Origin: Cenococcum geophilum
Lineage: Eukaryota
Assembly (NCBI GenBank): GCA_050273025.1
Contig: CP158635.1
Location: 7,564,001 to 7,628,000 of the forward strand
Length of the DNA stretch: 64,000 bases
Direction: 5' to 3'
Within the stretch, counting starts at the first letter, position 1; each line of letters starts with the position of its first letter. The position numbers were made by a program, and so were the translations under genes. Shown piece by piece: positions 13,311 to 40,749 of the stretch. Under the pieces are notes generated by a model, which was not told the DNA's origin, searched no databases, and was given only the letters and a program-made list of their open reading frames with translations.

Positions 13311-15169
13311 ACCTACTTACCTACCTGCCTACCTGCCTACCTGCCTGCCTGCTTGCCTACCTACCTACCTACCTACCTGTCTGTCTGTCTATGCCTACCT
13401 ATCTATGCCTACCTGTCTGTGCCTACCTGTCTATGTCACCTTGATTCGATCGATCGATCGAATCGTTTATCGTGTTCGCTGGCTGGTCGTTCGAACGGTT
13501 GTCGTGTGGCTCTGGCGACGGTCGTGTGGCGATGACGACGGTCGTCTAGCTCTGGCGACGGTCATCTGGCTCCGGCGACGGTCGTCTAGCTCTAACGACG
13601 GTCGTCTGGCTCTGACGGTCGTCTAGCTCTAGCGACGGTCATCTGGCTCTAACGACGGTCGTCTAGCTCTGGCGACGGTCATCTGGCTTTGGCGATGGTC
13701 GTCTAGCTCTAACGGTCGTCTAGCTCTGGCGACGGTCATCTGGCTCCGGCGACGGTCGTCCAGCTCTGGTGACGGTTATCTGGCTCTGGCGACAGTCGTC
13801 TGGCTCTGACGACGGTCATCTAGCTCTAACGGTCGTCTAGCTCTGGCGACGGTCGTCTGGCTCCGGCGACGGTCGTCTACTAGCTGTCGTTCTGGTGTCT
13901 TCCTAGGTAGGGAGGATATAAGAAAGGGTAAAAAATAAGGTAGCTACCTAGGTGTATATAGGGGGTATACTTGGCAGAGGCACGTATAGAGGCTATCGGG
14001 AATATAGCGGGGACCCAATAGTAGTGTGTCGCGCGCATACACACAAAGGCTTTGTGTAGAGCTTTGTGTAGAGCCTCCGTATGTAGAGCTTCGCGTAGAG
14101 CCTCGTGTAAAGCTTCGCGCAGAGCCTTGTGCAGAGCCTCTATATATAGAGCTTTGTGTAGAGCTTCGTAGAGCTTTATGCAGAGCTTCGTGTAGAGCTT
14201 TATATAGAGCTTTATACAGAGCTTTGTGTAGAGCTTTATACAGAGCCTCTATACGTAGAGCTTCGTATAGAGCTTCGTGTAGAGCTTTGTGTAGAGCTTC
14301 GTGTAGAGCTTTATATAGAGCTTCGTGCCGAGCTTTGTATAGAGCTTCGTGTAGAGCCTTATACAGAGCCTCTATACCTAGAGCTTTGTATAGAGCCTCG
14401 TGTAGAGCCTTATATAAAGCTTCGTGTAAAGCTTCGTGTAGAGCTTCGTGTAGAGCTTTATATAGAGCCTCTATACGCAGAGCTTCGTGTAGAGCATTGT
14501 GCAAAGCTTCGTATAGAGTATTATATAGAGCTTCGTGCAGAGCTTCGTACAGAGCTTCGTGTAGAGCCTCGTGCAGAGCCTCTATACCCAGAGCTTTGTG
14601 TAAAGCCTCGTGTAGAGCCTTATATAAAGCTTTGTGTAAAGCTTCGTGCAAAGCTTCGTGCAGAGCTTCGTGTAGAGCTTCGTGTAGAGCTTTGTGTAGA
14701 GCCTCTATACGCAGAGCTTTGTGTAAAGTATCGTGCAAAGCTTCGTGTAGAGCATCGTGTAAAGCTTCGTGTAGAGCTTCGTGTAGAGCTTTGTACAGAG
14801 CCTCGTGCAAAGCTTCGTGTAGAGCTTCGTGTAGAGCTTCGTGTAGAGCTTTATGTAGAGCTTCGTGTAAAGCTTCGTGTAGAGCTTCGTGCACGAATTC
14901 GTGCAGAACTTCGTGTAGAGCCTCGTGCAGAGCCTTTATACGCAGAGCTTTGTATAGAGCCTCGTGTAAAGCCTCGTGTAAAGCTTCGTATAGAGCTTTG
15001 TGTAGAGCTTTGTGTAGAGCTTCGTATAGAGCTTCATATAGAGCTTCGTGCAGAGCTTCGTGCAGAGCTTCGTGTAAAGCTTCGTGCAGAGCTTCGTACA
15101 GAGCTTCGTGCAGAGCTTTATGTAAAGCCTTATGCAGAGCTTCATATAGAGCCTTATGTAGAGCCTCTG
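13311..15169 (+). repeat. Composite repeat core: (CCTA/CCTG)n, (ctggcgacggtcgt)n, unique ~130-bp linker, (gagcttcgtgca)n 12-mer array
   Basis: Directly visible. The 12-mer array spans ~14050-15169. Confidence 0.95.
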
Positions 15170-15434
15170 CATTAGGAAATTTTTTTTAGGCATATTATTG
15201 CAAGCGAAAATTAGGGTCTGCAAAACCTGCGTAAGTCGCAATTTTGGTAATTTATGGCGATTTGCAGCAATTTGCTACAAACACATAGATAAGGCAGGCG
15301 CGTGCATAGGTAGCCTATGTGTTTGTAGCAAATTGCTGCAAATCGCCACAAATTGCCAAATTTGCGACTTACGCAGGTTTTGCAGACCCCGATTTTCGTT
15401 TGCAACAACGTGCCCAAAAAAAAAAATCCTAATA
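15170..15434. mobile_element. Palindromic MITE-like hairpin with CATCAGG-type ends
   Basis: ~120-bp inverted arms (tctgcaaaacctgcgtaagtcgca / tgcgacttacgcaggttttgcaga) centred near 15302. Confidence 0.85.
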
Positions 15435-16179
15435 TAATAGCTATACTGCGTTAAGTTTAGGTAAATAGGTAAAACAGAATATACACTATTCTATCTCGTA
15501 GGGCTCCCTAGTTAGACGCTATATAAACTACTAGGGCAGATAAAGCTAGTTACTTTTTACCCGTCTAAGCTATAGTAAAATCTATTACCATCTAGTCTAG
15601 CTTTAAAGCGGTAAGCGGCTCTAGCGGATATACTTTATAGCTAATCTTTCTAACTTTCTACCACTACTAGCTAATTACTAGACTTATATAAATATTACTA
15701 GGAATATATATAAAAGGCTTTAAAGCAATTAGGTAACTAGGAATAGTTTTTCTATAGAATCCCTAAGTAAATCTTTACTCTAGCCCACCCGTATCTTAAA
15801 AAGACTAAAAAGGGGCTTTTAACTCCGCCATTTCCTTAATATTGCACATAATATTCTTATCCTCTTTTTCTAAGCGTTAGGGTAATAGCCTTACTATTAT
15901 CCCTCACTAAATAGTAATATTAAACGAGGATAACCAAGTAGCTTAACGCAGACGTTATTTAGCTACTTTTACAAGCATATTAACGGAGGCGCTTACGGTA
16001 TAGAAAGCCTAGCTAATATCTTATAAAACTAACTCTAATAGACACCCTATGTGTAGCAAGAACTCTATCTAAATTATAATTAATAAAATCACCCTTTACT
16101 GATCTAAAGTGTACTTTAAAAAGATAACTATTAAGAACCTAAATAAAAGTTTAATGCCTAGATGTTTATACACCGCTTA

Positions 16180-17091
16180 AGGCTTTAGAAGGCCCGGATT
16201 AATTAATAGTATATTAACTTTGGGAATTCCTAGCTTTATGCAAGTTATAATAATATACCTCCAATAGTTTCTTCCCCTAGAGCTCTTTATACCTAAAACA
16301 GTATTAATAAACCATTTCTGAAGGCCAAAAAGCCAAATAATTAGAAAATGTAGGTAGGTAATAGTAAAGAATAAACAAAATATCGGCTTAATATTGTCGG
16401 ATAGGTCTTATACCTTAATACCTCAAAAACCTATATCCTCTAGCATTTGCGGTAGGACTCCCTCTTTAAATTTCCTATTTACTGGCATAGATGCGAAAGT
16501 ATTAATTTTATTTATAGAATCTTTAAGGTATTTAGGCGCTTTATTAAATTTAAAATCGTATTTATATAATATAACGGACCCCTCTAGTTTAAGGACTCGG
16601 TAAAACTCATATAAGACTTATCCTGGATTTGTTATATATATAAAAGTCTCTATAGTATAAATTCCGTTAATTAAATTATTCTAGAGGCCGTTTAGATAAT
16701 AGTAGTCTATCTTTTAAGTAGATACTTACTGTTTAAAATTTTCTGCCTTAATATTTCTGTTTACCTTATTAAGGTAATAGTTAACGACGTTAATTCTAAA
16801 AACACGTAACCCTTTCTTTGCTATATATATTACAACGTATCCTACTCTATATCCTGCGTTAAGTACTATAGCTTTAGCGCTAAGATTTAGGGAGTTAAAT
16901 AGATGGTCTTCTATTGCCCTAAAGGCCCTAGTAATTAAAAACGGCTATTTAGCTTCTACTAGATAATAGCTATAGTGACGTATTTCACCAAGCATAAGTT
17001 TATAGCCTATTTAAGATTCGAGAGAATTGTAATAGCTTTATAGGGAGTGGTTAGGTTTAATAAAAGGTTTGCTATTATTAATATCTGCTAT
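16180..17091 (-). pseudogene. SAM-dependent methyltransferase (sterol 24-C-methyltransferase-like fold), RIP pseudogene
   Basis: Minus frame reads VLNAGYRVGYV (reverts to motif I LDAGCGVG), GIYTIETFIYITNP (YTMETFVHATDP) and EFYRVLKLEG. In-frame TAA/TAG stops. The 3' end is approximate. Confidence 0.85.
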
Positions 17092-20000
17092 AATAGAATT
17101 GAGGTGGAAATATGGTTTTCTAATATATAATTTGGTAGTTCTATTTTTAGGTTCGCCTTATAAAATACAATTACGGAAAGCTAGGGAGGAGCTAAAGAGA
17201 ACCCTTTACTTATTTTAGAAGACTAATTTTAAAAGACTCGATTATAGGCATCTCCTAGCAAGGTGGGGGTTTTAATAGCGGCGTAATTAATAACTAGTCT
17301 TGGTAAAAGGCATCTACTAAGACACTAGTAATAACTATATCTACCTAAGCCTTATCTATAAGGCTAGTAAAAAGCATTAAAAAGAATAATAAGGAGGAAT
17401 TAAAAAAACGAAAATTTATAGAGAATGACGATAGGCTTAAAGAGCTCTTTTATATAGATATTTAAAGGCGAAGATTATGGAATTAGGAGCGGTAGGCTAA
17501 CTATCTCTCCATTAAAACACCAATACTAGATACTAGAGCTCTATATTAGGTAGCTAGTTAATTACTAAGTATAGCATGGGAAGTAAAACCTAGTGGTAGA
17601 GATTTATTACAAATTTATGGGCCATCTGTCTATATTTTTTACGCCGCTCCGTACTATTCACTACGCTATAAAAGGAGGGGTCAGCCTAGGGTATATATAA
17701 GCTTTTATAGTGTAGGTATTAAATAAGCGACTTAATTATAAATATAGCTCTAAAGTCTCTATATATATACAAGGTAGGGGGCAAGAAGATAATGATAACG
17801 ATTTATAACAGCTACTATATGCAGCGCTACTTAGTTAGTAATAGGTAATAGAAATAGGTAATAGAAATAAGTAGTAAGATATATAATAGTAAGAAATAGG
17901 TAGTAAGTTATAAGGTAATATAAGCCTTAGTAGTTGGTTATAGTATATATAGAAAGCGTAGGCCTGGCGGAATTTATAACCTATACCCTTATTTATACTT
18001 GGTTTAGCAATTTTATTTAGTCTTTATATTAATAAATAAGAACTAGACGCTTTTACTTCGCCCTAATAATAAGTACTACCAACTATAAATAATGCAGCTA
18101 TTATACTGTTACGGCACTGGCAGAACTTAGCAGAACTTCGCGGTTATGTAACTAGAGGACCGTATAAAAGAACCCTACTTCGACCGGCGCTGCTTTTCTT
18201 CCCCTTTCCTTTCTCTAGCTTTAGACTCTTGTTTATAGATAATCTAATTATATAGGCTTGCGCGTCCCTTATACCGTGCTCGTGCCTTAATTAACTAAGT
18301 TATTAACATTATCTAAAGCTTATCCACCCTTTCTTTCTAAGAAGGAACTTAAATATATCTAAAGACTAGAATAAGAATAAGAACTAGAACTAGAATAAAA
18401 ACCGGAACTAAAGAATATAAAAAGAACACGAACCCTAAGAATAGGACAAGCACGGACTAGAACCCCTAAAGAATTTACTCAAAATTATCTAACACCCTTA
18501 CAACTATGCTAAGAAATATAGCAGCTAGCAAAGCAGCTGCAGAACCTTTAAATACCTTAGATAGTAAAATAGTTAATATCTTAAACCCCTAGGCAGAGCT
18601 AGTAGTAGCTAATACTAAGATTAAACAACTGCGAGAGCTGCTTAAAGCTAGAGATACCCCTACCTCCGTATCTAGTAACAAATTATTAAATACCTAGAGA
18701 CTTACTACGGTCCTTAAAGCCCTGTCTTAGCGCCTTAGCGGACCTACTAAGCCATATATAGCATCATCGCGGTCCATAAAGGTTATGGATTCCCTATTGC
18801 TTATAGACGGAACAAACCCTATATTTAATAACTAGAAGCTCTAACTACAAAATAAGCTCGAAGTTAATACCGACTATTTTCCTAACCCTTAGGCCTAAAT
18901 GGCCTATATCTTCAGCCGTACTAGCGGGGACACCTAGACGCACCTACGCCTATAATACGCTAAGGACTTAATAGACCCTTTTACCTTTAAAAAAGAAATA
19001 ATTAACTACTTGTCTTCTATTTATAAGAACCCCTTTAAGGTATAAAACGCCCGCTTTAATTATAAAGGCCTAAATATAAAAACAATGGAGACCTTTTTAG
19101 CCTTCTAGACCCGCTTTCTATACTTAGCCAGCTAAGCCTAAATTCCCTAGAAAGATTTAATGCTAAACCTATTTAATAAGCTTACCCTAGACCTACAGCG
19201 GGCCGTATTACTAGTTTTTACTATTATATAGACGCTAAAGAACTTACGGATTAGTGCTTGGCTATTAACTAAGGCCTTTATTAAATTAAGGCACGCGCTA
19301 AACGATATAAAGCCAGAAACCTTCTAAATTAGATTATAAATAACGCAAGAACGGCCCGTACTACCCTAGTACGATTAATAACTCCTATAGTACTAGCTAT
19401 ATAGCCTATCGCTAATATATTAGCTGGCCGTGCAGCTAGTCCTACTATAGGTCTGGTAAATACTCGGCCTATATTTAGCAGCCCCTATATATAGGCCTTT
19501 AGTAATAAAGGCACCTACTTCTCTTACGGCTAGAAGGGCTATATTATAAAAAACTGCTTAATAAACGCAAAAAGGGACAAAGTTTTATTAATCTAGAAGG
19601 ATAGTATAGAGTTAGAAAAAGAGGAACCCTAGAGAAAGACTCCTCTCTGGGGTTAAAAGGGATTAATATATTATATATTAATTTAGGTCCGCTAGTTAGC
19701 AGAAGAAGTTATACCTTCCCTTATACTTTATTCCGTAATAAATATTAAGTTTTAACCTCTACTTTAGCTAACTCTAGAGTAAATACCTTTACCTTAATAA
19801 ACACCTAGTGCGTTATAAAGCTAGCTAACTTTTTAAATATACCCCTTAAAGAACTGCCTAAACTAATTTCTATTTACGGGTATAACGGATAGATAGGGCC
19901 ACCTATTATAACTATATTGCGGATTTACCTTTATATTAACGGACGAAGGTAGTATAATATCCCCTTCCTTATTACGGACCTAGAAAGCTATAATATAATC

Positions 20001-21592
20001 TTAAGGAAAAAATAGCTAGCCTATTTAGGCTTATGGCTTAATATATAAAGTAGACGGCTTATCTAGCCTAAAACCTTACCCCCAACTCCTTCCTTTATAA
20101 AAGAAATTAGCATTATAATAGAAAACCTTATATAGCCCTAGATTAACACTATTTACTAGGCCGATGCTATGCGTAGGGACTAGGCCTTTAAGAAAGATAT
20201 ATAGCTTAATCCGCAATAGATCTGTATACTACGCCACCCCTAGACTACCTATATTACGCTACCCGCATTAAAGACCTAGGAAGTTAATAGTGACCTAAAA
20301 AAGCCCCCTATAGAGAGCTTAGGCCCTATATAGCTATAAAAAATAGTAAGGAACGTCGGACGCTATACTAAATTAATAAATTAGAGGGATAAGTTGCAAA
20401 AGATAGAATAGGAGCTAAGAAAGATTATAAACCCTAAACTGCAAAATACGGTCTAGTAAATAGCTGTAAAAAAAATCTACGGACCTCCCACTAGTTAATA
20501 TCTACTATATTAGCGCTGTAGGATTCTACCGGAACTTAGTCTAGCCTAATACTATTACTTTTACAACTAGCTTATATAAAATTAATTAAATACTTAAGGA
20601 AAAGGAAAGTAAGCTTAGTAGATAGAAAAGTAAGCTTATAAATAAGGAGCTAGCAGAACAGAAACTACCCTATTAATACTAAAAGTTTAAGGATATATTC
20701 TCTAAGGCAGTATCTAATATACTTCTACTATATTAACTATACAACTATAAGATCGAGATTAAGTTAGATAAGGAAAACGCCCTTAGCTATACCCCCCTCT
20801 ATAAATAATCCATTGCTAAGTTATAGGCTACTAAGTAGTACCATGTTAATAACCTAGTAAAGGGGTTTATTAAGCCTAGCTAGGCCCCTTTTAACTCCCC
20901 TATTTTCTTTATAAAAAAGCTAAATAGAGGACTTTGTTTCTATATTAACTACTATAAGCTTAATTATATAACCCGTAAAGACCGTTATCCGCTGCCCCTA
21001 CTTAATTAAACACTAGCCTAAATAAATAGAGCTAAGGTATTTATAAAGCTTAATATCCGTTAGGCTTTCTACTAAATTAGAATAAACCTTAGATCTATAG
21101 ATCTTACTATATTTTAGACTTAATATAAATTATATAAGTATAAAGTACTTCCTTTTAGACTGACTAACGGACTGGCTACATACTAACGATATATAAATAA
21201 TATACTCTTTAACTACCTTAACAACTTCTGCACGGCCTACCAAGATAATATTATAATTTACTCTAAGAATAAGTTAGAATATAACGAAAACGTCTGTAAG
21301 GTTCTATAACGGCTTTATAAGGCTAGCCTTTAGGCTAACATTAAGAAGTTAGAATTTAGTGTAAAGTGTATAAAGTATCTAGGGTTTATTATTAGTATAA
21401 ATGGAATTAAGGCTAACTTAAAAAAAAGGCCGTAATTAATTAGTGGGAACTACTACGGACCGTAAAAGGGATATAGTTATTCTTAAGCTTCTGTAACTTC
21501 TACTAACGCTTTATTAAGAACTATAGTAGGATTACTTAGCCCCTTAGCCGCCTTACTATAAAGGACCAGCCCTTTTACTTTAACACTATATA

Positions 21593-24500
21593 ATAATAAT
21601 TCATTGCTTAACGTCCGATTTGGATCCCTATTGGGCCTACGCGGACTACCCCTTATATACATATGGGGAGAAAACTCTATTTAAGAAAACCTCGTAATCT
21701 ATCTCCCCGCCTTTTAGGACTCGCCTATAAGGCGCCTGCGAGGCGCCTATAAGTCACCTATGGTGCTCCTACTACCTTACTTTTTAACCTCCTTAGGAAC
21801 TACTGCTGCCGTAATAAGCCTACGGACGCGCTAGTATTGTAAACTTTACTCTACTACTATAGAGTCATTAGGGGGCGCCCGTTGCTCACCTCACCCTCTA
21901 TTACTATTTCCCTTACAACCCAGAACTAGTTTAGTACATTTTAGCTAATAAGCCACTAGGTAACCGCCTTAAGGCCTTTTTATATTAAGAGCAGTGTATT
22001 ATAGTTCTCTATACCAGCTACTAAAAGCATTACTTTTTAGTTAGTGCGTAAGGGGCATAACAGTATTACGTGTTTTAGTGTCTATCTTAGCCAGCTATAT
22101 TTACATCTTAGGCTACCTACTAGGATACCCACCCGGTAGAGCTAGTCTTTTAGTCCTATTATTCCTATTCTTAAGAGTATCGCTATTATATTTTCTACCT
22201 TCATTAGGCCTTCTTAGAGCCCTAGAGTGTTTACTCCCTATAGCGTTAACTATGCTACGGCTTAGGTTCCTCTTGCCTTAGTCAGCCTCTATACCTTTAA
22301 CTCCTATACGCCTCTTTAGCATTAATCTAACCAGTGTTGTATTACGGTAGATAGTTTCTTAGCGTTCTTTTATACTCTACTTTAGCTCCTTTCTCTCTCT
22401 TACTATTGTCCTTACTAGCCTCTTACGCGTCTGCCTTCCTTCTCTATATAGGCCTAGGCCCTAAAGCAGCACTATTCTTCTTCTACTTTTTTTTACCTAT
22501 TTCTCCAATATATCTTCCCTACTTTAGGGTTATTAGTTTATTCTCCTATAGGGCGCCCTAAGGTCCCTCTATAGTTTATTTAGGCGTGTCTTAATATACT
22601 TTATAATATTAGAGTTACGTTTATTTTAGGCCCTTTATATTACAGTAGCTTTAATATATAGTTATAGGGGGGGAATATTGGCTTCCTTCTTAAGCAGTGC
22701 TATGGCCGTTTGCTTATATCCGCCTGTTATACTTTAAAGGTAGGCTATTTAGACCTTTTAGAGTGGTTTAAGGAGCGACTTAGGGGGGCCTTTTTTAGAT
22801 TCTCTAATGGCCTAAATACTAGACCTATAAGTTATGGTTAGCCAGACAACTGCTATATATAATAGGCGTAACCTCTAGAAGCATAGGCCCTATATAGAAT
22901 TGACGATCCTAAATAATGTAATATACTGTGCTTAGCCTTTGCGGGCCGCTTACGCCGTATATACGCTCCACCGGAGCTTGCTGTTTACCTATACTTCTAA
23001 TACCCTTAGGCCCTAAACTGGTTAACCCCTAAAGCCTTAAATGCGGATTATATACTAAAGATCTGCAGATTAGTTGCGTTTTCTTATAAAATAGATTAGC
23101 TGGTATTTCTCTAGTAAGAATTAGACTCTATATTATCTTACCTATTCTATATAGGTGTTATAAGCTTTCTTTAGCATTCTGCAATTCTCTGCGGCTAATA
23201 GCCCGTATATAATTAGGTTTGTGTCATTAACAAAGCCTATCCCCTAGGTCGCCCCTTCCTTAAAGGAGTTAAACAGGTTGCTTATAAAGAAAAGGAAGAA
23301 TATAGGCGAGAGGGGTAATCCTTATAGTATTCCTGTTGCAACTATAATAGGGGGGCTCTAGTATCCGCTAAAGACTAGTAATATTTCTTTCTAACCTATA
23401 AACCCTTAGATAAATTGTATAATCTATTCTAAGAAGCCTTTTGCCCTAAGGATATATAAGAGACGCTCGTGGGGTATATTATTATAGGCGCCACTAATAT
23501 CTAGGCTAAGTATTAATACTATAAAGTCCCTTCGCATCGCCCATGCGGATTTAATGGTGGCAGCGAGTAGCGTAAGTGCTAATAGTGTTAAGCGGTTCTT
23601 TCTTGCCCCCATTTAGCTCTATAGTAGTAAGGTGTATTCCTTAGCTATGTCTGCTATGCGGTCCGCTATTACCTTTTCTAAGATCTTACTAAGGGTGTTT
23701 TCTAAGGCAATAGGGCGGTAGCTTCCTAGGATTAAGTAATCTGCTTTACTTTCTTTTTATAGGATAACTGTTATTATAGATCTTCTAAGTTGTAGGTAGT
23801 AGCCTATAGCAAAGTATGCTCTGGCTATATCTGTAAGCTAGGGTACTATAAGTAGTCCATAGGTCTTTAAGGCCTTATTTAGAATCCTATCTAGACCTAG
23901 TGCTATATTATTTAAAAGGCGGCTAATAGTTCTAGCCATTTCCTTTATTGTTATATCGCTGTTAACCTATAGGCGAGTCACTAGTGCTTTACCTGTAATA
24001 TTACTAAGGTCTACTAAAGCCAGTTAGGGGGAGAACCTTTCTATAAGGATCTTTACCTTCTTATCGTTATTATTAGTGGCCTATAATTCCCCTACTCTTC
24101 GTAGGGGTAGTAAGTATAGGTCTTTTACTAGTCGCCCTGCCTTTTTCTTTACTTATTTTACTATAGCCTACAGGCCCTTATTATAGGGGAGGCTTAGGTT
24201 AAAAGTATGCTCGTTTATAAATCGTCTCTAATTATTTCTTACTTCTTTTTTTAGGGTGTTCTTTAACTAGTTTCTTATATCTTTATATCGTCTCTTATCT
24301 TTAGGGTTATAGCTACTTAAGTATTTCCTTTTTACTTATCGTTAGCTAGCTATAAGAACTACGCATTATACGGACCATGCGTGTCGCGTATAGGGGCCCG
24401 GTCTTAAGACCGGGCAGTACTCTTCTAGCCTATTTTTAATCGCTGCCTAAATCCTTTCTAGTCTTTAGTTAATTTTCTTAGGGGTAGCTAATAAGCCTTG

Positions 24501-24800
24501 CTCATTTAGTATTAGATGGATTTCTTCTAGGTCTTAGAGTTGTTATTTAACTGTATTAAGGAAACTGTCTGCCTTAAGCATCCTTATTACGTATCTTTTG
24601 CTATTTAGTTGCGCCTTAATGTCTAAATCTAGCTGTATTTAGATGGGGATATAGTTTAAGGTAAGTACTTATTCTTCTTTAGGGTTGCACCTTTTAAGTC
24701 TCTAGTATAGGCCTTCGTCTATAAATATAAGGTTAATTATACTTCTAGCGGGTCCTCGTTGCCATATAATTGCTCTAGGGGGGGTGGCCTGCTTAAGGCC
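21593..24800 (-). mobile_element. 5'-truncated Tad1-like LINE
   Basis: 13-bp TSD ttaacactatata (21580-21592, 24801-24813). Short (TTA)n tail. RT motifs LSLDISGAYNNIPHERL (ORF 23424-23612), GIL*GLPLSPIFF and GFVNDT. Confidence 0.92.
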
Positions 24801-26562
24801 TTAACACTATATATAAGTAGGCTTTTAATAAGCTTAAGAAACAACTAATCTCCGCTCCCTTACTCGCCTACTTTAACCTAAAATAGCCCTTAATACTAGA
24901 AACGGATGCCTTAGATAGTATTATTACTAGTATTTATTCCCAAAAGTAGATAGACAGAGAATGGTACCCTATTGCTTACTACTTAAAGACTATAATAGAT
25001 ACTAAGCTAAACTACCCAATCTATAATAAAGAAATGTTGGCTATTATCTCTAGCTTTTAGCATTAGCGAGTATAGCTAAAAGGGACTCCTAAGCTTATCT
25101 AGGTAGTTTCGGATTATAAGGCCCTAGAATACTTTATAATAACTAAGGCCCTTATAGCTTAGTAAGCGCGCTAGGTAGACGTTCTATCCTAGTTTAACTT
25201 CCTAATTATATATAGGCTAGGCGCTACTAACCATATAAATGCTTTTATAAGACGTAAATAGGACCTAAATAACTAGATAGCTATAAAGATCTTATTATGG
25301 ACCTAGACGCTACTATAACCAGAGTACCTTAACCCTTAGATATAGAAAGAACTAAGTACTAAATCTATAAGCGCTAAGATATATCCTATTAACCCTATAG
25401 AATTCGACTTTATTAATAAACTATTGCAAGTAAACTGTATGGACCCTCCTTTATAGGTATACCGTAAAAAGGCAAAGGATATTACTAGCTTATGGTCCCT
25501 TAAAAATAGACTACTTAAGTACTAGAAACGGTTAGTAGTAGTAAAGGAACGGAATTTATAAACCTGGCTTATTACTAAAGTATATACCTAGGTCTCTACG
25601 GCCTACCCTAGAAAAAATAAGACCCGTAAGATTATTAGTAACCGTTACTACTGGCCCAGAATAGTTATAGATATTAACCGTTATATACAGAACTGTAATG
25701 ACTGCTATAGGTCTATAATTCTATAAGATAAAACCCTAGGACTATTAAACCCCCTCCTAATACCTAACTGCCCCTAGTAGTATATCTTTATAGACTTTTA
25801 TAAGCTACCTACAGACCGCGACGGATATGATATAGTTATAATTCTAGTTAACTGCTTTAGCAAGCGCCCGTTTTTAATTCCCTATTATAAGAATATTAAT
25901 GCTAAGAAGGCGGCTTAACTATATATTTATTATATCTACCGTATTTACGGATCACTAGATACTATTATATCCGATTATAGCCTATAATTTATATTGGCCT
26001 TTTAGAACGAGTTTACCTAGATCCTAGGTATTAGGCTAAAGCTCTCTATAGTATACTACCCCTAGATAGACGGCCAGACGGAGATTATAAATTAATATTT
26101 GGATTAAAGACTCCGGCCTTTTATTAACTACTTTTAAAACAACTAGGGCAAACTGCTACCCCTAATAGACTACGCCTAGGCGACCCTACTCTATAACTCT
26201 ATGGGATTTGCACCTATCTAACTAGAAATAGGGTATTTACCATAAATAAGCTTTAACTGGGATAGACTAGAAGGACCATAGACTATACGCGAAAAACTGT
26301 CTTATAAGGAAGCCTAGCAGTACATTAAGCGCTTAAAGGAAGTCTAGACAGTAGCTCGTATAAATCTAAAAAAGGCCTAAAAATTAATGGAATATTAGGC
26401 AAATAAGTATAGGCGTAAACCCGACTTTACCATAGGCGATATAGTTTAGGTTATAATAAAAAACTAGAAGACGGAACGGCCTAGCTATAAGCTAAACTAT
26501 TAAATAGCGGGACCATATAAGGTCCTTAAGAAGATAGGTAACTCGTATAAAGTAAAGCTCCC

Positions 26563-27432
26563 TGTTACGGATTCCGACCGTAGCACCGCCAAGGGCTCGC
26601 CTAGCGAGCCTTGGCACCCACAGTATATAGAGCCACGGTGCCTTCGTACCTCTTTGCACCTTCGTGCAATATCCTGTTGTGTATATAGCCAATGCTATGA
26701 CGTTCCCAGAGCCTCCTAACCGCGCTCCGTGACATTATATTGCACCCAACGACTCGCATAGGCCTGCCTACCGCCTATGGAGCCGGTACGACGACTTTAA
26801 CCCATGCCGACCGTTGGACGACGATTTGATACCCTTAATTCTACCTCTTAATTTCTACCGCATTAACGTCTCTGCCTACTACTGCCTCTACGATTCTACC
26901 TGCCTGCGCACACGACTATAACAATGCCTATCCAATAGCAGCATCTCCGCTTTCCCGCTGTGCGCTTACAACCGAGCAAGACCAGCACCTCTGCTGTCCC
27001 GCTGTAAGGATACTACTTCGACCTAGGACTGCAAACAGTTATCTACGACTTAACGAGCTTGGAAGAACAGTTATAAGATACCTCAGACATCGAGTCATTA
27101 ATCTACCTATTAAATCGTCATCACCCTCGTCAACCGTTCGAGCTACGTTCTGCCAGCGAACGCCTCTAATAAGCTCTGCCAGTCACTAGTGAGCACCACA
27201 GCACCGTACGGAGGGAGGATCTGCCTTAAGGGACTTCGGCTTTGTATAAGGGGGGGGTAGTGTCACGGATTCCGACCGTAGCACCGCCAAGGGCTCGCCT
27301 AGCGAGCCTTGGCACCCACAGTATATAGAGCCACGGTGCCTTCGCACCTCTTTGCACCTTCGTGCAATATCCTGTCGTATACATAGCCAATGCTACGACG
27401 TTCCCAGAGCCTCCTGACCGCGCTCCGTGACA
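26563..27432 (+). mobile_element. TRIM (terminal-repeat retrotransposon in miniature), 870 bp
   Basis: 172-bp LTRs 26563-26734 and 27261-27432 (TG...CA). TSD ctccc. PPT aagggggggg. 526-bp interior with no pol. Confidence 0.93.
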
Positions 27433-28116
27433 CTCCCAGATTTAATTAAGGTTTACCCTATTTTCTTACTAGATAAGCTATAGAAAGCTATAAACGACCT
27501 ATTACCTAGATAAAAGAACAAACCTCCCCTACCGATTTAAGTTAATGGCGACGATGAATAGGAAATTAAAGAAGTACTAGCCTGTAAACTAGTAAGGAAA
27601 ACGCTAAAGTACCGCGTTAGTTAGAAAGGCTATAACCTAGACCCTAGCTAGTACCCTATATAGAACTTTATTAGTAGTCCCTATAAGCTTTAAGAATTCT
27701 ATAGCTATTACCCTAATAAACTAGGACCCCTAAAGTACCTAGACAAGTAGATAAAGTGCTAGTATAGTAAGGACGATAAGCTACTAAAAGAATATAAAGA
27801 TAAGAACGCCCTATAGGCATAATACGGATATATAAAGCCTAAGGGCAGGCTTTTACGGAGGGGGGGTAATATTACGGTACTAGTAGAACTTGGCAGAACT
27901 TAACTGGCAGAACTTAGCAGAGCTTAGTTAGTAGAACTTAGCAGAACTTCGTGGTTACGTAACTAGAGGACCGTATAAAAGAACCCTACTTTGACCGGCG
28001 CTTCTCCTTTCCTTTCTCTAGCTTTAGATTCTTGTTTATAGACAATCCAATCGTACAGGTTTGCGCGTCCCTTATACCGTACTCGTGCCTTAATTAACTG
28101 AGCCGCTAATATATAC

Positions 28117-28900
28117 TCTCTTATACGTGCAAAGAATAGCCTATTTTAGATCTTTTAGGTCTATTATAGTACTTATTAAAACATTAGCTAAACCTCTAAT
28201 ATTAGTAATAGTAAATAGTATATAGGAATCGGCTTCTAGCAAAGCAAGATAATAAAATCTCAAGTAAGAGTTATATACCATAAGAGGTTCCTTAGCCCCC
28301 AGCCTATTAGAAGCCTTTAGTATACGCTACTTAGCAGAACCTATAATGTCTAAGTCCTAAAGAAAACATAATTATTAATATATATAGATTTTAACTAAAT
28401 ATATAAAAGGTTGCGTTAGCTTCTACCGCGGGTTAGTACTATCTTAGCGAAGATTAAGGTTAATTAGTAGGATATTTAAATGTCTTAGTAACTATAACAC
28501 AAATTAAGCCAGATCCATCGCCAGAACTTATTAAGGAAGGAAGTTATTTCTTACCTAATATGCTATAGAGGCGGAGGAACCTATAGGAAAGCGGTGCTGC
28601 AATTTATTATCCTTAGTAGGCTCTTTTAATTAAGTAATACAAATAGTTACCTAAGCTTAAAGCTGTTAAGGCTAAGCCCTTATATATTAACGTAAAGCAG
28701 TATAATTAGATTTTGGTAAGACGCAAAGCTTATATATAATTTAACAGCACGTTTTAAAAAGGACGAAAGCTATATTAGTATAAATCCCGATATAAGCATA
28801 TAATGAGATAACCACGTGGTCCTTATAGACAGTTTCTAACTACTAAAGACACTGCGGCTCCTTTTAGTAGCGGAGGCACCGAGGATAATTCACAGATATA
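28117..28900 (+). pseudogene. hapB: NF-YA / Hap2 / HapB CCAAT-binding factor subunit paralogue, RIP pseudogene (5' part probably ~17790-18106, split by Gypsy-2)
   Basis: 28677-28841 translates PLYINVKQYN*ILVRRKAYI*FNSTF*KGRKLY*YKSRYKHIMR*PRGPYRQFLT. Transition reversion gives PLYVNAKQ..RIL.RR.AR...KGRKPY.HESRH.HAMRRPRGP.GRFLT, the CBFB_NFYA signature. Confidence 0.9.
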
Positions 28901-29129
28901 AACCGCGTAATATACCACCACGTCTTATATAAAAACGTCTTAGTATATAAAGACCTACTTTTATTACTAGGCTAATAAAAGGAGTTCTTATATAATTATA
29001 CTTAACACCTAAAGTGGCTATAAAACACTATCTACTTTAAGAGAAATGTATTTAATATATATAAGGTGTTTTACTAGCTTTAATAGGGGCTATGCTTGCT
29101 TTAAGAGAAGTTACTACGCATAAACTAAA

Positions 29130-29352
29130 TATAACGGTGCTAGGGCGCGTTGCCTGCTAAATTCTGCTAAATGCAACCATATTCTACCACATCCTATAAT
29201 TAGCTCGCCTACTACTAGCGCCTTGGCGGTTACCTCTATATATTTTTTTACATCGGTCCTAGCGACTCCTTTTCCTTCTCTTTAGCGTAGTATCTTTGTA
29301 ATATAGCATTTATTTAAGCTTTGGTTTAGAGATATTTATTTAAGCCATAACA
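29130..29352 (+). mobile_element. Solo LTR
   Basis: tataacgg (TGT after RIP reversion)...ccataaca. TSD ctaaa on both sides. Homologous to 49187-49386. Confidence 0.88.
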
Positions 29353-29971
29353 CTAAATTAGCTATCTAAACTATAAGGGCGAACAGAAAATGGCGATTAT
29401 TCTCTTTATATTTGGTTCTTCTTCTCTTTAAAGTCTTTTGGCGTAAGCTTTATAGGCACTGGATATATTTAACTCTGTACTTAATTAGAAGATATTTTTA
29501 GATAAAGGTCGTTAATATATAAGCTATTCTATAGTTAGTGGCTATAACTACTGCTTTATAGACGTGTAAAAGTACTATTTATTTTACACGTTTTGAACAT
29601 AAAATACTTTTACCCCAGCTATAGATCGTAACTCGTCTGCTTTTTTAAAAAGGGTCTTTATTCTTTTACGTAATATCTCTCGTTTTTACTTTGCTTTAGC
29701 TCCTTAAGCCTTTATATTAGAGTTTTGTATTTATAATAAATTGAGAATAGTTCTAGATATACTACTAGAACACTTACCTCCACTCTTGTCACCTATCTTT
29801 AAGTTAGTAGAATTAGTAGAATCTATAATGCTTGTAAAATTAAGGAAATTACTTAACTATTATTTATAATAATAAAAGTAAGTCTATTGTTAAAAAAACC
29901 TATATATAACTATATTTAATTATAACTATTTATAAAACTTAAGTCTACTATTTATAATTTAATAGCCAGTA

Positions 29972-33100: not shown

Positions 33101-35199
33101 TCTATAGAAGTCCTCCGGGCCTACTAAACCTATATATACTAAGCCACTAACACCTACTACCTTAAGTACTACTAGAACTAATATCGATTTCTCTATACTA
33201 ACCTTCCTATAAATACTCCTAGATAGAGAGCGCAAGCTACTCCAGAAACTAAAATGCTGCTATAAATGCTATTAAAAAGGCTATTATCGCGATAACCTAA
33301 ACTGCCTAATAGCTAAGTTTAGTAGCTACCGCCTAATACCTAACCTAATACCCTAAACACTAAATACGTTACTATATACCACTACCGTACAAAATAAAAA
33401 TATAGTAATAGTAGTAAAGTTAGATACGGAAACAGAAAACGCTAAGTCCTAGCCTTAAGTTATAGGTTAGGACGCCCTAATAACAGAAGGATCTATATAT
33501 CGGCTTACTTAATAGATAACTCTATAAAGATAAACGGACGGAAATAGATAGTTTTACCTATAATAGGAACTACTACTAAAAAATAATATAAAAGCCGTTC
33601 TATAATTAATTGCAAAGCTACTAATAAATTTATAAATACCTAATTTATGCGTATTTATAACCTACCTACCTTACCCCTTACCAAAGCCCGCGCCCTATAA
33701 CTCGCTAATAGTAATTATACCGTATAAAAGATTACCTATATAGCATAACTCTACCTAGATATAAATGGGCACTAGGAAGAACTCTAGGCCTATATTATAC
33801 TACTTACTAACTACTCTATTATTCTTGGAATAAACTAGCTTAAATAATACAACCCTACCATTAACTAGAAGAAAAGAGAAGTAACTTTTAACTCTAAATA
33901 CTATAGAGAGACTTGCCTAGGGTATAGCCTAGCTACCTCTATTTACTCCCTAGGATATTAACCTAAGGAACCCCTTATTACTCCACCTACAACTAACTAC
34001 TACTACGTAAGTACCCTAGCCTTTTACCGTATAGTACGTAAGAAAGGCTAAACTATTATTATAGCTTTCTAATTATAACTATATAAGCTTAATAAAGAAT
34101 AAAATTATATCCTCTATAGTAATAAAATAGATATAGTTAACCTTTTAAAAGACAACGCCCCTACGGAACTCTACGGACTTTTACCTTTAGACTTTAAGAA
34201 GTTTATAAAGCTTAAAAAAGGACTTACCAATAAAGAACTCCGCAAGCTCCTCCCTAAGAGGTACTATAACTTTACCAATATATGCTTATAAAAGAGCGTA
34301 AATATACTCCCCCTATATTAACCTAATAACTATACCATTAATATTGAATAAGGAAAAATGCTACCTTATAAGAGATTCTACCTAATATTAAAAGATGAAC
34401 TTCTAATTATAAAAAAGTATATTAACAAGCACCTTAATAAAGGATTTATTTATCCTAGCATATTACTAGCAGCCGCCCCTATCCTTTTTACTAAGAAGCT
34501 AAAAGGAGGTATTTAATTCTATATTAACTATAGAGGACTTAACGCTATTATAATTAAAAACTAATACCCAGTACCGCTTATATATAAGACCCTTAAGCGG
34601 TTTAGTTAAGCCAAAATCTATACTAAGCTTAATATTATCGCCGCCTTTAACTATTTCTAAATATAGGAAGGTAATAAATAGAAAACCGCATTCGCATTAC
34701 GCTTTGGCCAATTTAAATATACTATTATGCCCTTTAGCGTATATAACGGCCTAGGCACCTTCTAAAGCTATATTAATAACGCCTTATAGGACTACTTTAA
34801 CGACTTCTACTCTGCGTACCTAGATGATATACTTATTTATAATAATAACCCCTTTAAGTATACCGAACATGTTTAAAAGGTCCTATAGCGCCTTAGGGAC
34901 GCAGGACTTTATATTAATTTAAAGAAATGTAAATTCTTAGTTATAGAAGTAAAATACCTTAAACTAATTATTACTACTAAGGGTATCTATATAGACCCCA
35001 AGAAGGTACGTATAATTATTAAATAGTAAGCCTTTAATTATATTAAGGACGTATAAGCCTTCCTTAGTTTTGCTAACTTCTATTAGAAATTTATATATAA
35101 CTTTTTAGGCGTAGTAGCACTACTTATAGCAATAATACAAATAAAGGGCCTTTTTATAAAAGGAAGAAAAATATACCTACGCTTTACCTAAACGCCTAA

Positions 35200-35935
35200 G
35201 GGATCGTTCGGTTGCAAATGAGGTCCACATCATAATCTGTTCGATCTGTGCGTCTTTTAGTGTCGCTCGTTTTGTAATTAGTGGCGGCTACCACCGTGAC
35301 TTAATTGAATCAGTAAATGAGTCGATCGTTCGGTAAGCCTCTAGATGAGACTCCATATTTGACTCCGCACAATGGGTTATTGATTTTAGTGGGCGATTTA
35401 AGTGACCTCTGCCACCAGGCCTCTATCGTGACTCCCTGCTTTGGTGTAGCAATGGAGCCTCCTCCACGGCCAATACCCTCTCGCCGGTTGACCTTTTCTA
35501 CACCTGCGCCAACCTCCCGTACGAGCCGCAGTAGAGTTACCGCGACGCCCGCCGGAAACAAGCTTATCGCGATTACGAAGGTTAAGATAATGATATTATA
35601 TAAGGCTTGCAAATGCGACAGCAGTATCGCGATTGGGGCGTGCGGAGTCGCCATATTATAAGAAGTCGTTACTTTGGCATATGCGAGAGCTCCAGAATCA
35701 ATATGGAATATGGGGCAGGAGCTCGAGGCTCCTTATTGAAACGGTGCCAAGAACCTCATTTCAACTACTGTATACGGTATAGCTTGCAAATTTGACGCGC
35801 TTACCGATATGGAGGAGCTCCATATTCAAAAGTCGTCATATTTACCGAACGACAACCTCATATTCATATTTGAGCTCCATATCGGTTAAATATGGAGCCT
35901 CCATATTCAATATGAAGTTGCAACCGAACGATCCC
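35200..35935. mobile_element. PIF/Harbinger-type non-autonomous element, 736 bp, little RIP
   Basis: Perfect 18-bp TIR gggatcgttcggttgcaa. TAA TSD at 35197-35199 and 35936-35938. Subterminal ccatat repeats. Confidence 0.92.
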
Positions 35936-38388
35936 TAAATATAAGAAGACGTTCTAAGACCTTAAAAATGCCTTTACTAAAGCACTTATCTTAGCTTACT
36001 TTATACTAAAACAATAACTTTACCTTAAAACTAACTCTTCAGACTACGTTAACGTAGGTATCCTTTCCTAAATAGGTAATAACGGTCTCCTTTACCTAGT
36101 CGCATTCTACTCGTCTAAGCTTATACTATAAGAGTATAACTATAAGATCTATAATAAAGAATACCTTATAATTATATAAGCGTTTAAAGAATTCTAACCA
36201 GAACTCTCCTTAGTAGAGCTTAACTAGCTAACTAAAGTCCTTACGGACTATCGCAACCTTAAGTACTTTATAACTATAAAGTAGCTAAACTAACGCTAAG
36301 TAGTTAGAACGAGTTCCTCTTTAGTTTTAACCTTAAAATTATATATAAACTAGGAGTATAAGATACTAAACCTAATAGCCTAATATACCGCTTATAAGGC
36401 CTTCTTTAGTTTAAAGATAACCCTTATAATTAGTTCTAATAATAGATAATCCTAAAAGCACGAAATTTAGCCTTAGGCATACTACCTACAATAGAGCTAA
36501 CTATACCCTAGCTTTATACTATAGAACTAAAGTTACCTCCTAAAATTAATAAGCTTATTACTACGGCATATAACGCCTCTATTAACCTATTACTATATTA
36601 ACTTATTACCGCAAAGACCGCTAGCGCCCGTACGCTACCTATTAACCTCTAAAGCTTAGGCCAGATTAATATAGCAGCTTTAAAAGTAAAAGAGAATAGG
36701 CTCTATTATAGAGGCCGCCTATTTATCCCTAACTTAGAAAATCTATAACGGCAACTAATTTAAATAGCCTACGACCTCCGATTAAGTGGCTACTTAGGTA
36801 AAAAAGGAACTTATAAGCTTCTTAGCTAATGCTACTTCTAGCTAAAAATAATAGACTTAATTAAACACTTTATAAGTACCTACTATAGTTATAAGCGCGC
36901 CAAAGCCTTTAATATAAAGTACTAAGGACTACTATACCCTCTACTAGTACCTATATAACGATAGGCAGATATTGCTATAGATTTTATTATAGACCTACTA
37001 CCCTATAAATGACATGGCCGTACCTATAATAATATCCTTATAATAATATACCAACTTATAAAAGAGCGCCACTACGTCCTAACCGAAGGCGTAGCCGTTA
37101 GTAATGTTACTAACGCTTTTCTCTGTAAAGTTTACCGACTATATAGGTTACCTAACTTAATTACGTCCGACTAAGGTATATAATTTAACTCTAATATATA
37201 GAGACGAATCTGCTAACGCCTTAGTATCTCCGTTAAGATATCTATATCTTTTTATTATAAAACTGCTAGGCAACTAGAAAACGCTAATACTAGTATAAAA
37301 GCGTACCTACAATAGGTAGTCGCCTATAGTTAAGATAACTAGGTAGATTACCTCCTACTAGGTAAATTCGCAGCGAATAACTATATCTTAACCACTATAG
37401 GACTTACCCCGTTCTTTATAAATAAGGGTTATTACCCCTAATCCGGTATAGAGCTACTAGAACCTATTAATAAGAAACTACCATATAGAAAACGCCTTAA
37501 GATGCTACTTACTAACCAATATACAGACTATATAAAAAATCTACTCAACTACTGTAAGGGAGAAATGGCCTAGGCTTAAGTAAAGCAGGCCTACTTTGCT
37601 AACTATTATAAAACGCCACCACTGGAAATGCGTGTTAGCAACTAGGTATAGCTAAATATACGTAATATCTCTATATAGAGGCCTATAAAGTCACTTAATT
37701 ATAAGAACCTTAGCCCCTATTTAATTAAATAAGTTATTAATAGGGGAGCCGTATATAAGCTAGAACTCCTACCTACCCTAACTACTCGTAGGATATAGCC
37801 CATATTTTACCTATAGCTACTATACCTCTATTAGCCTAACCCCTTACCGGGATAGATATAGCCTAAACCCCTACTAGTACTAATTTAAGATAAGAATAAA
37901 GACGAGAACTATAAGGAGTGGACTATTAAACAAATTATTAACTTTAAATACTTTAGCAAAGGTAGAGGACAACGGCTCTACTATAGAGCTATATACATAG
38001 GATTCGATATAAATTAGCTAAAATGGCAACTATAGGAAGACTTTGAAAATGCAAAGGATCTAATTAGCGACTTTTACTACGCAAACCTATAGAAACTAGG
38101 CCTAAGCAGAGACTTTATACCTAATTCTTTATAAAAGCCTATATAGAGTTAAACCGTTATACATTACTACGTAAGGGTAAATTACCGTTAGATTGCCGTT
38201 AAATTGCAGTAAAGTGCGATTACGTAACCGGAATATTGTTAAGATGTCTAGGAACTTCGACCGGCGGTTAAAGTTATCTAATTAGTCGGATTCTTAGATG
38301 CTAAGCCCTATTATATAATGTTATTTTAAACCTTTAGCAATACCCCCTTGTTTCTTCTTTTCTATACCTTAAGTGTCCCTTCTATATA

Positions 38389-39409
38389 CATCAGGAAAAT
38401 GTTCATGCCTCCTGACAGTACTGACAGGCTCCTGACAGCTCCTGTCAGGGCTGCCAGGATCTCCAGGAGACCCTCACACTCGGTTTCCTGTCAGGAGCCT
38501 GTCAGGAGGCCGCCCGGACCAAACGGACCAAACGGACCTCCAGGACCTCCAGGACCTCCAGGACCATCAGGACCATTAGGACAATTAGGACAATTAGGAC
38601 AATTAGGACAATTAGGACAATTAAAATAATTAAAATTCTAGATTTTAAAATGAGGTATACTAATACTCCAGTATTTACAGCAGTTAAAATATAAAAATCA
38701 GGTTAATTTTAGGCCCTATTCTATATACACAATGCTTTAAGCCATCTAAATAATCCAAATCGATCCTTCCTACCTACCACCTATGGCTGTGTCTACTCGG
38801 GCGTCAAGCGATCGATCGAGGAGACGAGGGGTAATCTCTCGCAGAGGCTCCAAACCGTCGATTGGCGGTGTTCCCGATGATCCGCCGGCCGTGTACTGAT
38901 TTCCTAACTAGGCCTAGTGCCTGTCCTGCCTGTCCTGCCTGTCCGACCGTCCTACCTGTTCGTGCCTACTGTCTGTGCCTACCTGTCTGTGCCTGCCTGT
39001 CGTGCCTACTTGTCTATGCCTACCTGTCTGTATCTATAATTCGGGGGAGATGTCGGCCCGATCGAAGGCTCTGCTTGATTTGATTGCGATTAATTGTATT
39101 GATTCGAATCGTTCTCTATGGGCGTTCGCTGGCTGTACGTTTGAACGGTGGTCGTCTGGGGTGCCTCCCTAAGAGGCCTTAATTCGATTTGATTTGGTAA
39201 CGGGATAATATCAAGGCTCTGGTTCGATTCGATCGATTGAATTGATCGTGGTGTCCGCTGGCTGGTCGTTCAAACGATTATCGTCTGGCTCTGGCGACGG
39301 TGTCTGGTTCTGGCGACGGTCCTCTCCTACCTGCCTACCTACCTACCTGTCTGCCTACCTACCTACCTACCTACCTACCTACCTACCTACCTACCTACCT
39401 ACCTACCTA

Positions 39410-39453
<44 letters not shown>

Positions 39454-40749
39454 CGTCAGTGTCTGGTTTAATTCGGGGGAGGGGCCGGCCTAATCGAAGG
39501 CTCTGATTGATTCGAACCGTTCTCTATGGGTGTTCGCTGGCTGTACATTCGAACGGTAGTCGTCTGGGGTGCCTCCCTAGGAGACCTTGATTCGATTCGG
39601 TGAGCCGATATCGAAGCTCTGGTTCAATTCGATCGATCAATTGATTGAATCGTTCGTGGTGTTTGCTGGCTGGTCGTTCGAACGGTCGTCGTCTGGTTCT
39701 GGCAACGGTCGTCTGGTTCTAGCGACCGTCTGGTTCTAGCGACCGTCTGGTTCTAGCGACCGTCTGGTTCTGGCGACGGTCGTCTGGTTCTGGAAACGGT
39801 CATCTCGTTCTCGCAACGGTCGTCTGGTTCTGGCGACGGTCCTCTGCTGGTTGCCGTTCTAGTGCCTCCTAAGGTAGGGAGGATGTAAGGTAAAAATAAG
39901 GTGGCTACAAAGGGGGTAACTTGGCAGAGGCACGTGTGGCAATCGGGAATATAGCGGGGACCCGATAGTAATGTGTGCGGAGCTTCGTGTAGAGCCTCCG
40001 TACGCAGAGCTTCGCGCAGAGCCTCGTGCAGAGCCTTTGTACGTAGAGCTTCTTCGTATAGAGCTTTGCGCAGAGCTTCGTGTAGAGCTTCGTATAGAGC
40101 TTTATGCAGAGCTTCGTGCAGAGCCTCTGTACGTAGAGCTTTGTGTAGAGCCCCGTGTAGAGCTTCGTGTAGAGCTTCGTGTAGAGCCTCTGTACGCAGA
40201 GCTTCGTGTAGAGCCTCGTGTAGAGCCTCGTGTAGAGCCTCGTGCAGAGCCTCGTGTAGAGCTTCGTGCAGAGCTTCGCGTAGAGCTTCGTGCAGAGCTT
40301 CGCGTAGAGCTTCGTGCAGAGCTTCGCGTAGAGCTTCGTGCAGAGCCTCGTGTAGAGCTTCGTGTAGAGCCTCGTGTAGAGCTTCGTGTAGAGCTTCGTG
40401 TAGAGCTTCGTGTAGAGCTTCGTGTAGAGCTTCGTGCAGAGCCTCGTGCAGAGCCTTAGTAGTGTTGCTTGAGGGGTGTGCATAGGATGTTGCTTTGGGT
40501 ATCCTGCCAGGAACCTGACAGGACGATCAGGAAATACTAGTTTCCTGTCAGGACGATCAGGAAAATCAAAGATCCTGTCAGGACAATCAGGACAATCAAG
40601 ATCCTGGTAGGCTCCTGGCAGGACAATCAGGACGATCAAGATCCTGGTAGGCTCCTGGCAGGAGCCTGTCAGGACGACCAGGACGATCAGGAAATCAAAA
40701 TCCTGCCAGGAGGCCTCCAGGATCTTGGCACCCTAACAAAATGCTGATG
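38389..40749 (+). mobile_element. CATCAG-terminated non-autonomous element, copy 2 (least mutated), inserted in the Gypsy-3 3' UTR
   Basis: ta|catcagg...gctgatg|ta. 9-bp caggacaat/caggacgat subterminal repeats in both arms. Same composite core (~38920-40455). Confidence 0.85.

Follow-up and report, generated by a model that had tools for sequence, protein, structure and literature searches.

A Probable RIP-Degraded Copy of an Amplified Unit Carrying HapB-like and Methyltransferase Genes in Cenococcum geophilum

The NF-YA/HapB Core and the Gene to Which It Belongs

The window considered here is the whole stretch of 64,000 nucleotides of Cenococcum geophilum DNA that we have analyzed. On its plus strand, at positions 28677-28841, lies the relic of an NF-YA/HapB core, composed of an A1 helix, a short linker, an A2 helix and a loop of the GxGGRF type. 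Translated into 55 codons, five of them in-frame stops that were read as X, this segment matches the Pfam profile CBFB_NFYA (PF02045) with 42 bits and an E value of 1.4e-10, the curated cut-off being 27 bits, and its residues 1-49 fall onto positions 2-52 of a profile of 56. The match persists in a blind six-frame scan of the region 24-36 kb, in which it was found within a read of 2000 residues (E 3.2e-8). Among the solved structures in the PDB, the segment 28653-28889 has its top match in HapB of A. nidulans (4g91_A, E 1.4e-11), followed by human NF-YA (4awl_A, E 1.4e-9) and Arabidopsis NF-YA6 (6r2v_A, E 4.1e-8); the residue-level alignments with these three proteins keep the A1 motif ahead of the A2 motif and place a gap in the linker, of three residues with respect to HapB and of two with respect to the human and plant proteins. 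The profile match and the best structural match thus bear out the sequence-only reading of this DNA, which had recognized an NF-YA/HapB-type core at this place.

The same reading had also given 28677-28841 as the position of the gene, which holds for the core but not for the extent of the gene: instead of a 165-nt piece, we find a relic of about 294 codons that is split by a Gypsy element. This emerged when the masked segment 28653-28889 was searched exhaustively with HMMER against 1.84 billion representative proteins, which brought up 1059 NF-YA-type proteins at E<=0.001. At the top stands a protein of 264 residues, P0001, which matches without length change at 80.4 bits (57.9 for the runner-up) and itself scores 71.6 bits against CBFB_NFYA. 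A word-index search with the RIPed reading of the relic gave six candidates, none at E<=0.001, and the same type of search with P0001 found only two further members of the family: P0151 (294 residues, 76% identity over 99% of the query) and P0152 (162 residues, 64% identity over 56% of the query). All three are encoded on ENA/Logan contigs of 1.7-4.1 kb, and in the exhaustive search the family amounts to one cluster among the 1.84 billion representative proteins.

When P0001 is compared with the window by tblastn, it aligns along 28119-28892 in frame +3 with 138 of 263 residues identical (E 1e-65). The relic is also collinear with the full P0151, including a 14-residue segment absent from P0001, although the C-terminal tail of P0151 type appears in the window only after a one-base frame change near 28900. 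Because of this end-to-end collinearity, we take the relic for an entire gene, intronless and about 294 codons long, rather than for a domain alone. Its two pieces lie on the plus strand: the first seven codons plus one base at 18085-18106, with a start codon that is now ATA and the reading INNAAII in place of the MNNA.IT of P0001, P0151 and P0152, and the remainder at 28117-28975, which tblastn, alignment and codon analysis define, with 29 stops up to 28890. Genes of this family are intronless, have about 264-294 codons and combine a disordered N-terminal part with a C-terminal CBFB_NFYA core. For the N-terminal 190 residues of P0151, the Atlas model has a pLDDT of 0.49, and a search of the ESM Atlas returned no relative, the best feature score being 0.79 and the structural TM at most 0.26.

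RIP as the Probable Cause of Death

Dinucleotide bias of the RIP type extends over all 64 one-kb intervals of the window, with TA/AT ratios of 1.12-2.5 and (CA+TG)/(AC+GT) ratios of 0.18-0.91; the interval 28001-29000, with values of 1.61 and 0.51, has a G+C content of 33%. Islands of weak RIP occur at 35001-36000, 38001-40000 and 52001-53000 (composite index 0.2-0.44), the one at 35-36 kb showing no Pfam match.

Codon by codon, the relic can be aligned with P0151 at 259 positions, 146 identical and 113 different. C>T/G>A changes alone suffice to derive 99 of the 113 differences, while the reverse direction accounts for nine, and two classes of transversions, used as controls, for none and two. 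Among the 259 codons, every one of the 29 stops is derivable by RIP; stops now stand in the place of 19 of the 24 Gln, 10 of the 25 Arg and 1 of the 2 Trp residues aligned from P0151, and the start codon has changed from ATG to ATA. The proposal that this NF-YA gene copy is dead through RIP is therefore sustained by all of its stops and most of its codon differences, and killing by RIP-type transitions is the cause of inactivation that the sequence comparison supports. Since the window copy has no start codon, 29 stops and an insertion of 10 kb in codon 8, it can yield no protein and has no activity today.

RIP-type changes appear to have touched the open relatives too. Single C>T/G>A steps could explain 38 of the 51 differences between P0151 and P0001, 34 of the 40 between P0151 and P0152, and 31 of the 41 between P0001 and P0152, versus 280 of 1227 differences in a control of 25 ordinary NF-YA pairs of similar identity. 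Moreover, P0152 ends where six metagenomic copies of the gene, described below, have a stop at a Gln position. We thus read the three proteins as probable lightly RIPed survivors that were caught by gene callers and are not proven to be functional; among the copies seen, none is clearly a functional member of the family, the three open frames differing mainly by RIP-type changes.

Retrotransposons Within and Around the Gene Relic

What separates the two pieces of the gene is an LTR retrotransposon of the Ty3/Gypsy group at 18107-28111, on the plus strand and in codon 8. It has LTRs at 18107-18308 and about 27867-28111, a polypurine tract at 27857-27866, a 5-bp target duplication, TATAC, at 18102-18106 and 28112-28116, and domains in the order RVT_1, RNase H, Integrase_H2C2 and chromo-like SH3_Tf2-1, so that LTR pair, polypurine tract, target duplication and the order of reverse transcriptase, RNase H and integrase all agree with membership of this group. 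The empty site can be seen in the six metagenomic loci, which without exception join 18107 straight to 28112. Nested insertions are present within the element itself. A second reverse transcriptase relic (RVT_1, E 1e-15) lies at about 23093-23744 on the minus strand, nested between the reverse transcriptase and RNase H of the Gypsy element, and a 172-bp direct repeat with 44% G+C occurs inside its integrase region at 26563-26734 and 27261-27432, the two copies being 96% identical, which suggests an additional small insertion or duplication.

Beyond the gene, 155 nt downstream of the relic, the plus strand carries a solo LTR of 223 bp (29130-29352) that belongs to a related family and is defined by its junctions, with CTAAA at 29125-29129 and again at 29353-29357. 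It is missing from the metagenomic loci L002, L004 and L005 and has a partner repeat at 49184-49324. The LTR-like flanks at 27927 and 29214, which show partial likeness in alignment, are read as LTRs of related families. The earlier placement of the gene relic amid transposons is in keeping with these retrotransposon neighbors. Elsewhere in the window, direct repeats of 223 bp at 4413-4635 and 10959-11181, identical once transitions are collapsed, bound an insert of 6.3 kb and could be the two LTRs of a further retrotransposon; the insert parts two pieces that are contiguous in the metagenomic locus L003. An element of about 6 kb is present in two inverted copies, at 43022-49024 and 53189-59510, the cores of which (44180-48598 versus 58253-53832) are 98.5% alike after transition collapse.

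A Family of Many Copies

Inside the window, the block 28113-29213 has no second copy, even in a transition-collapsed alphabet. A different picture comes from the contigs of four public runs (X1, X5, X8 and X10) over 27900-29400. In X1, the likely source sample, exact contigs with no differences (records 1, 4, 6 and 8, with depths of 44.6-48.6) tile the block, and other contigs over the same block differ from it at 13-27 places per 146-191 nt. The other three runs come from further isolates under the same species label and show the same pattern of variants; the maximum of variant contigs at one place is 9 in X1, 12 in X5, 9 in X8 and 31 in X10. Of the variable places in X1 over 27900-29400, a stretch that takes in parts of LTRs, 185 out of 209 are transitions. 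As contig depth is not copy number, we leave the count of copies inexact.

A scan of JGI metagenome contigs yielded 594 stretches that fit the search pattern, of which six encode a HapB-like relative (L001-L006). All six lie on contigs with one metagenome prefix, and we assume them to be parts of a single genome. In each locus, the frame is broken by 13-22 stops and the start codon is ATA. Compared pairwise over 663-804 nt, these loci show 63-108 transitions as against 0-2 transversions, being 99.7-100% alike when transitions are ignored; for L003 and L006, the comparison extends to 2746 ungapped nucleotides with 300 transitions and a single transversion. From such differences, which are almost entirely transitions, it follows that the six copies were identical until RIP struck each of them independently. 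The copy in the window stands further away, with 116-159 transitions and 10-16 transversions to the six loci, and is 98.0-98.6% alike to them with transitions ignored. Fourteen transversions are fixed between it and the metagenomic copies, distributed over the first, second and third codon positions as 4, 6 and 4; they carry no signal of coding constraint by which purifying selection could be recognized, the numbers being small and the changes possibly later than inactivation. Multiple copies, almost pure C:G to T:A differences and an excess of TpA are what is found here, as in RIP-mutated repeats. The sequence-only reading had spoken of one extra gene, a claim that has to give way: the gene is a member of a multi-copy family present in the contigs of four isolates and in six metagenomic loci.

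The Repeated Unit and Its Methyltransferase Gene

The similarity between copies is not confined to the HapB-like gene. Upstream, the plus strand of the window at 15918-17423 aligns by blastn (80-84%) with L003, L005, L006 and partly L004, and the promoter-proximal part at 17977-18106, directly 5' of the Gypsy insertion, aligns with all six loci (79-86%), spanning 17977-18107 in L002, L004, L005 and L006 and 18007-18107 in L001 and L003. The intervening segment of the window, 17424-17976, is missing from the metagenomic loci. Downstream of the gene, the repeated unit continues on the plus strand at 28976-29129 up to the solo LTR, past which it restarts at 29353 and reaches at least 29429; accordingly, L002, L004 and L005 align with 28112-29130 by blastn and then again from 29347, 29352 or 29354 to 29407-29429.

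The locus L003, of 5.1 kb, can be followed further upstream. Besides 15926-17419, 18007-18107 and 28112-28748, blastn finds plus-strand pieces collinear with it between 1497 and 12840 (1497-1618, 1732-2220, 3834-4407, 11179-11880, 12547-12595 and 12641-12840), with window-specific insertions between them. The L003-collinear segments being so scattered, the window copy of the unit must have been broken by several insertions. Two tandem arrays rich in G+C within the RIPed region, at 2948-3544 (a 40-bp unit repeated 15 times) and 3602-3818 (a 26-bp unit repeated 8.3 times with 100% match), fall between two pieces that are contiguous in L003. A satellite-bearing repeat occurs three times in the window (13305-15423, 39327-40458 and 51587-52303), containing arrays of a 12-bp unit in 91, 38 and 19 copies as well as a 20-bp unit; one of its copies lies within the repeated unit of the HapB-like gene, in the interval 12840-15926.

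The unit holds a second gene. On the minus strand at 16252-17181, tblastn with the reading of L003 reveals the relic of a class I SAM-dependent methyltransferase with 10 stops (310 residues, 72% identical), separated from the HapB-like gene by about 0.9 kb on its upstream side and oriented divergently to it. The L003 protein matches Pfam Methyltransf_11 with an E value of 2.5e-11 and has its top PDB match in MitM (E 1.8e-8); the relic scanned directly in the window gives a weak match of 21.4 bits. When all six frames of L003 were scanned with Pfam over its 5.1 kb, the methyltransferase was the sole domain besides the HapB-like gene, and domains of a reverse transcriptase, transposase, Helitron Rep or tyrosine recombinase did not turn up; the corresponding scan of the window at 28.1-34.5 kb shows no transposon protein domains. 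Unit ends, terminal repeats and target duplications are not visible in the six loci, each of which runs to a contig end.

RIP has not reached equally far in all copies. Upstream of position ~2900, L003 is free of RIP-type change, while L006 has 89 such changes over L003 positions 2388-2887. Along L003 5-2682, the window shows T/A opposite C/G of L003 in 338 cases and C/G opposite T/A in 31. The un-RIPed segment 1-2900 of L003 contains open frames of 209, 156, 127 and 124 codons without Pfam match, and its counterpart in the window is heavily RIPed.

Relationship to Standard HapB Proteins

The short linker between A1 and A2, which had been regarded as beyond the reach of transitions, is a genuine feature of the family, since P0001 and P0151 have it as well. 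Defined as the interval between RIL.RR and Y.HES, the linker is 16 residues long in the relic as well as in P0001 and P0151. We surveyed 157 NF-YA proteins, 12 of which do not fit the pattern; in the remaining 145, the linker has 18 residues in 115, 19 in 24, 17 in 2, 16 in 3 and 15 in 1, and two of the three cases of 16 residues are P0001 and P0151 themselves. The motifs are altered too: the family has KQYN versus KQFH of HapB, ILVRR versus ILKRR, QHESRHKHAT versus LHESRHNHAM, and GPRGRF versus GPGGRF. In the last of these, the Gly-Gly of the GxGGRF loop has a role in DNA contact; P0151 has GPRGRF and P0001 GPSGRF, and the codons of the relic can be reached from the P0151 form by transitions. 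Differences in linker and motifs between the family and HapB lie outside the action of RIP because they are not of the C>T/G>A kind and are common to the open relatives.

With HapB of Massarina eburnea (P0153), P0151 shares 46 of 75 residues (61%) across a 3-residue gap, and this similarity is limited to the core, no further significant segment being found outside it. The earlier view that the relic is not a recently RIPed copy of a standard hapB of Pezizomycotina type accords with this restricted similarity, as the signature of that type (KQF..RILKRR, ESRHNHA and a linker of 19 residues) is absent from the family. A quick tree, built from 72 columns of 155 core sequences, unites the 20 rows of KQF type in one clade that does not include the family (SH-aLRT 98); by path length, the family has its nearest rows in proteins of Ceratobasidium and Rhizoctonia (1.39-1.54). 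When compared with the family core of Pfam type, KQF-type proteins occupy ranks 78-142 of 156, below many others. An AU test on the same 72 columns does not reject a tree in which the family and the KQF-type rows are united (p 0.40). As far as the sequences go, the paralogue may thus stem from an old duplication or from a recent one followed by fast evolution, or may be of foreign origin.

Whether the gene is additional to a canonical hapB is a related matter. The standard type is strongly conserved in A. nidulans and Massarina, from which we infer that the organism would have its own canonical hapB, besides which the HapB-like gene would be an extra one. Alternatively, the resident hapB of this lineage could itself be of the odd P0151 type.

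Evolutionary History of the Unit and Its Alternatives

In all, we consider it very likely that the stretch at 28677-28841 is the DNA-binding core in a dead copy of a unit that was amplified and then RIPed, and which contained divergently oriented genes for a HapB-like protein and a methyltransferase. The course of events with the best support is as follows. A divergent HapB-like gene would initially have come to lie beside a methyltransferase gene, as the preserved core suggests. This ancestral gene was presumably a working paralogue distinct from standard hapB, because a recognizable core has been kept while the rest diverged. The unit subsequently multiplied into many nearly identical copies, and RIP struck every copy independently with the C>T/G>A changes documented above, leaving the one in the window with 29 stops and no ATG. 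Later than RIP, the Ty3/Gypsy element entered codon 8 and the other LTR element, now a solo LTR, the DNA just downstream, both insertions being evident from their empty sites.

How was the unit multiplied? A plausible route, if not quite a probable one, is that it travelled as cargo of a mobile element, be it a non-autonomous element, a capture of Helitron type or part of a giant Starship-type element, so that the gene was spread by transposition. Six or more copies had the same sequence over 0.66-2.7 kb prior to RIP, many variant copies exist in four isolates, and the unit pairs two unrelated genes, of which the HapB-like one has no similarity outside its family; all this is what cargo would lead us to expect. 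Against cargo speak the scans of L003 and of the window at 28.1-34.5 kb, which detected no domain of a reverse transcriptase, transposase, Helitron Rep or tyrosine recombinase, and the six loci, which all stop at contig ends and in which the unit shows neither an end nor terminal repeats or a target duplication. The lack of RIP-type change in L003 upstream of ~2900 would fit partial segmental copies equally well.

These same observations lend some weight to another route, which we regard as possible while leaning against it, namely that segmental or ectopic duplication within repeat-rich DNA gave rise to the family, with no transposition machinery, and that RIP followed. It would account for the absence of transposon coding domains in the unit, for the collinearity of the window copy and L003 over more than 5 kb, and for the RIPed extent that differs from copy to copy, L003 being un-RIPed upstream of ~2900 where L006 is RIPed. 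Its difficulty is the sheer number of copies, which is high for such a process: RIP found six or more of them still identical, and in X10 a single place is covered by as many as 31 variant contigs.

The relic is unlikely to be a RIPed recent duplicate of the resident hapB. The N-terminal regions of HapB proteins evolve fast, so that unlikeness to the HapB of another fungus is not decisive, and the AU test leaves kinship with the Pezizomycotina-type clade possible; yet HapB of both A. nidulans and Massarina eburnea has a 19-residue linker and the KQF and HNH signatures, neither of which the family possesses, the differences are shared by open relatives and are not of RIP type, and the family core scores lower against KQF-type proteins (the ranks given above) than against many others. 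That a single-copy gene was killed by RIP leaking from adjacent transposons is hardly credible, for the block 28113-29213 is single in the window and flanked by highly repeated LTRs, but recurs as diverged contigs in the source run and three isolates and as six metagenomic copies.

Comparison with Known Systems and Significance

HapB, or Hap2, is a single-copy core gene in ascomycetes and provides the CCAAT complex with its sequence specificity. HapB of A. nidulans (4G91/4G92) is the best solved relative also of P0151 (E 1.4e-19), having in common with the family the A1 pattern LYVNAKQ..RIL.RR and the A2 pattern RKPY.HESRH.HA.RRPRGP.GRFLT, whereas the family has a linker three residues shorter, altered motifs, many copies and the marks of RIP. 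Human NF-YA (4AWL) and Arabidopsis NF-YA6 (6R2V) have the same two-helix core (E 3.3e-15 and 6.7e-15 with P0151) but linkers two residues longer. Plants possess many NF-YA paralogues that are kept functional, in contrast to the copies of the present family, which as far as seen are all degraded or lightly RIPed.

Filamentous ascomycetes are known for repeat families degraded by RIP and for RIPed gene duplicates in AT-rich regions. The present family resembles them in its transition-only divergence, TpA excess, stops at Gln, Arg and Trp codons and nesting with LTR retrotransposons, although its unit holds a transcription-factor paralogue and a methyltransferase instead of transposon genes. Mobile elements, for their part, capture or carry genes in systems such as Pack-MULEs, Helitron captures and Starship cargo. 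With these systems the family shares the presence of host-type genes in many identical copies; unlike them, its unit has no visible mobilizing gene, terminal repeat or target duplication. In those parts of the literature that our search brought up, no NF-YA/HapB paralogue was found to be linked with RIP or transposons. We regard the finding as a HapB-like paralogue of narrow distribution, which was amplified and is now dead, within the known NF-YA/HapB family.

A more far-reaching scenario, which we regard as rather doubtful, is that a mobile or self-amplifying unit spread a divergent HapB-like subunit, with its short linker and altered Gly loop, together with a methyltransferase of natural-product type in one burst to many loci, that this subunit, while intact, competed with HapB for HapC/HapE or shifted the targeting of the complex, and that after silencing of the family by RIP, open frames such as P0151 may survive and be expressed in some of the isolates.

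As it stands, the window contains a well-documented pseudogene and is of use mainly as a clear example of RIP, of nested insertion by retrotransposons and of the death of a gene family. A HapB paralogue with a short linker, restricted to this lineage, has here been multiplied and subsequently wiped out by RIP. An intact copy, should there be one, would represent a transcription-factor gene riding in amplified DNA, and nature would in it have tested how the spacing between A1 and A2 bears upon the assembly of the CCAAT complex and its reading of DNA.
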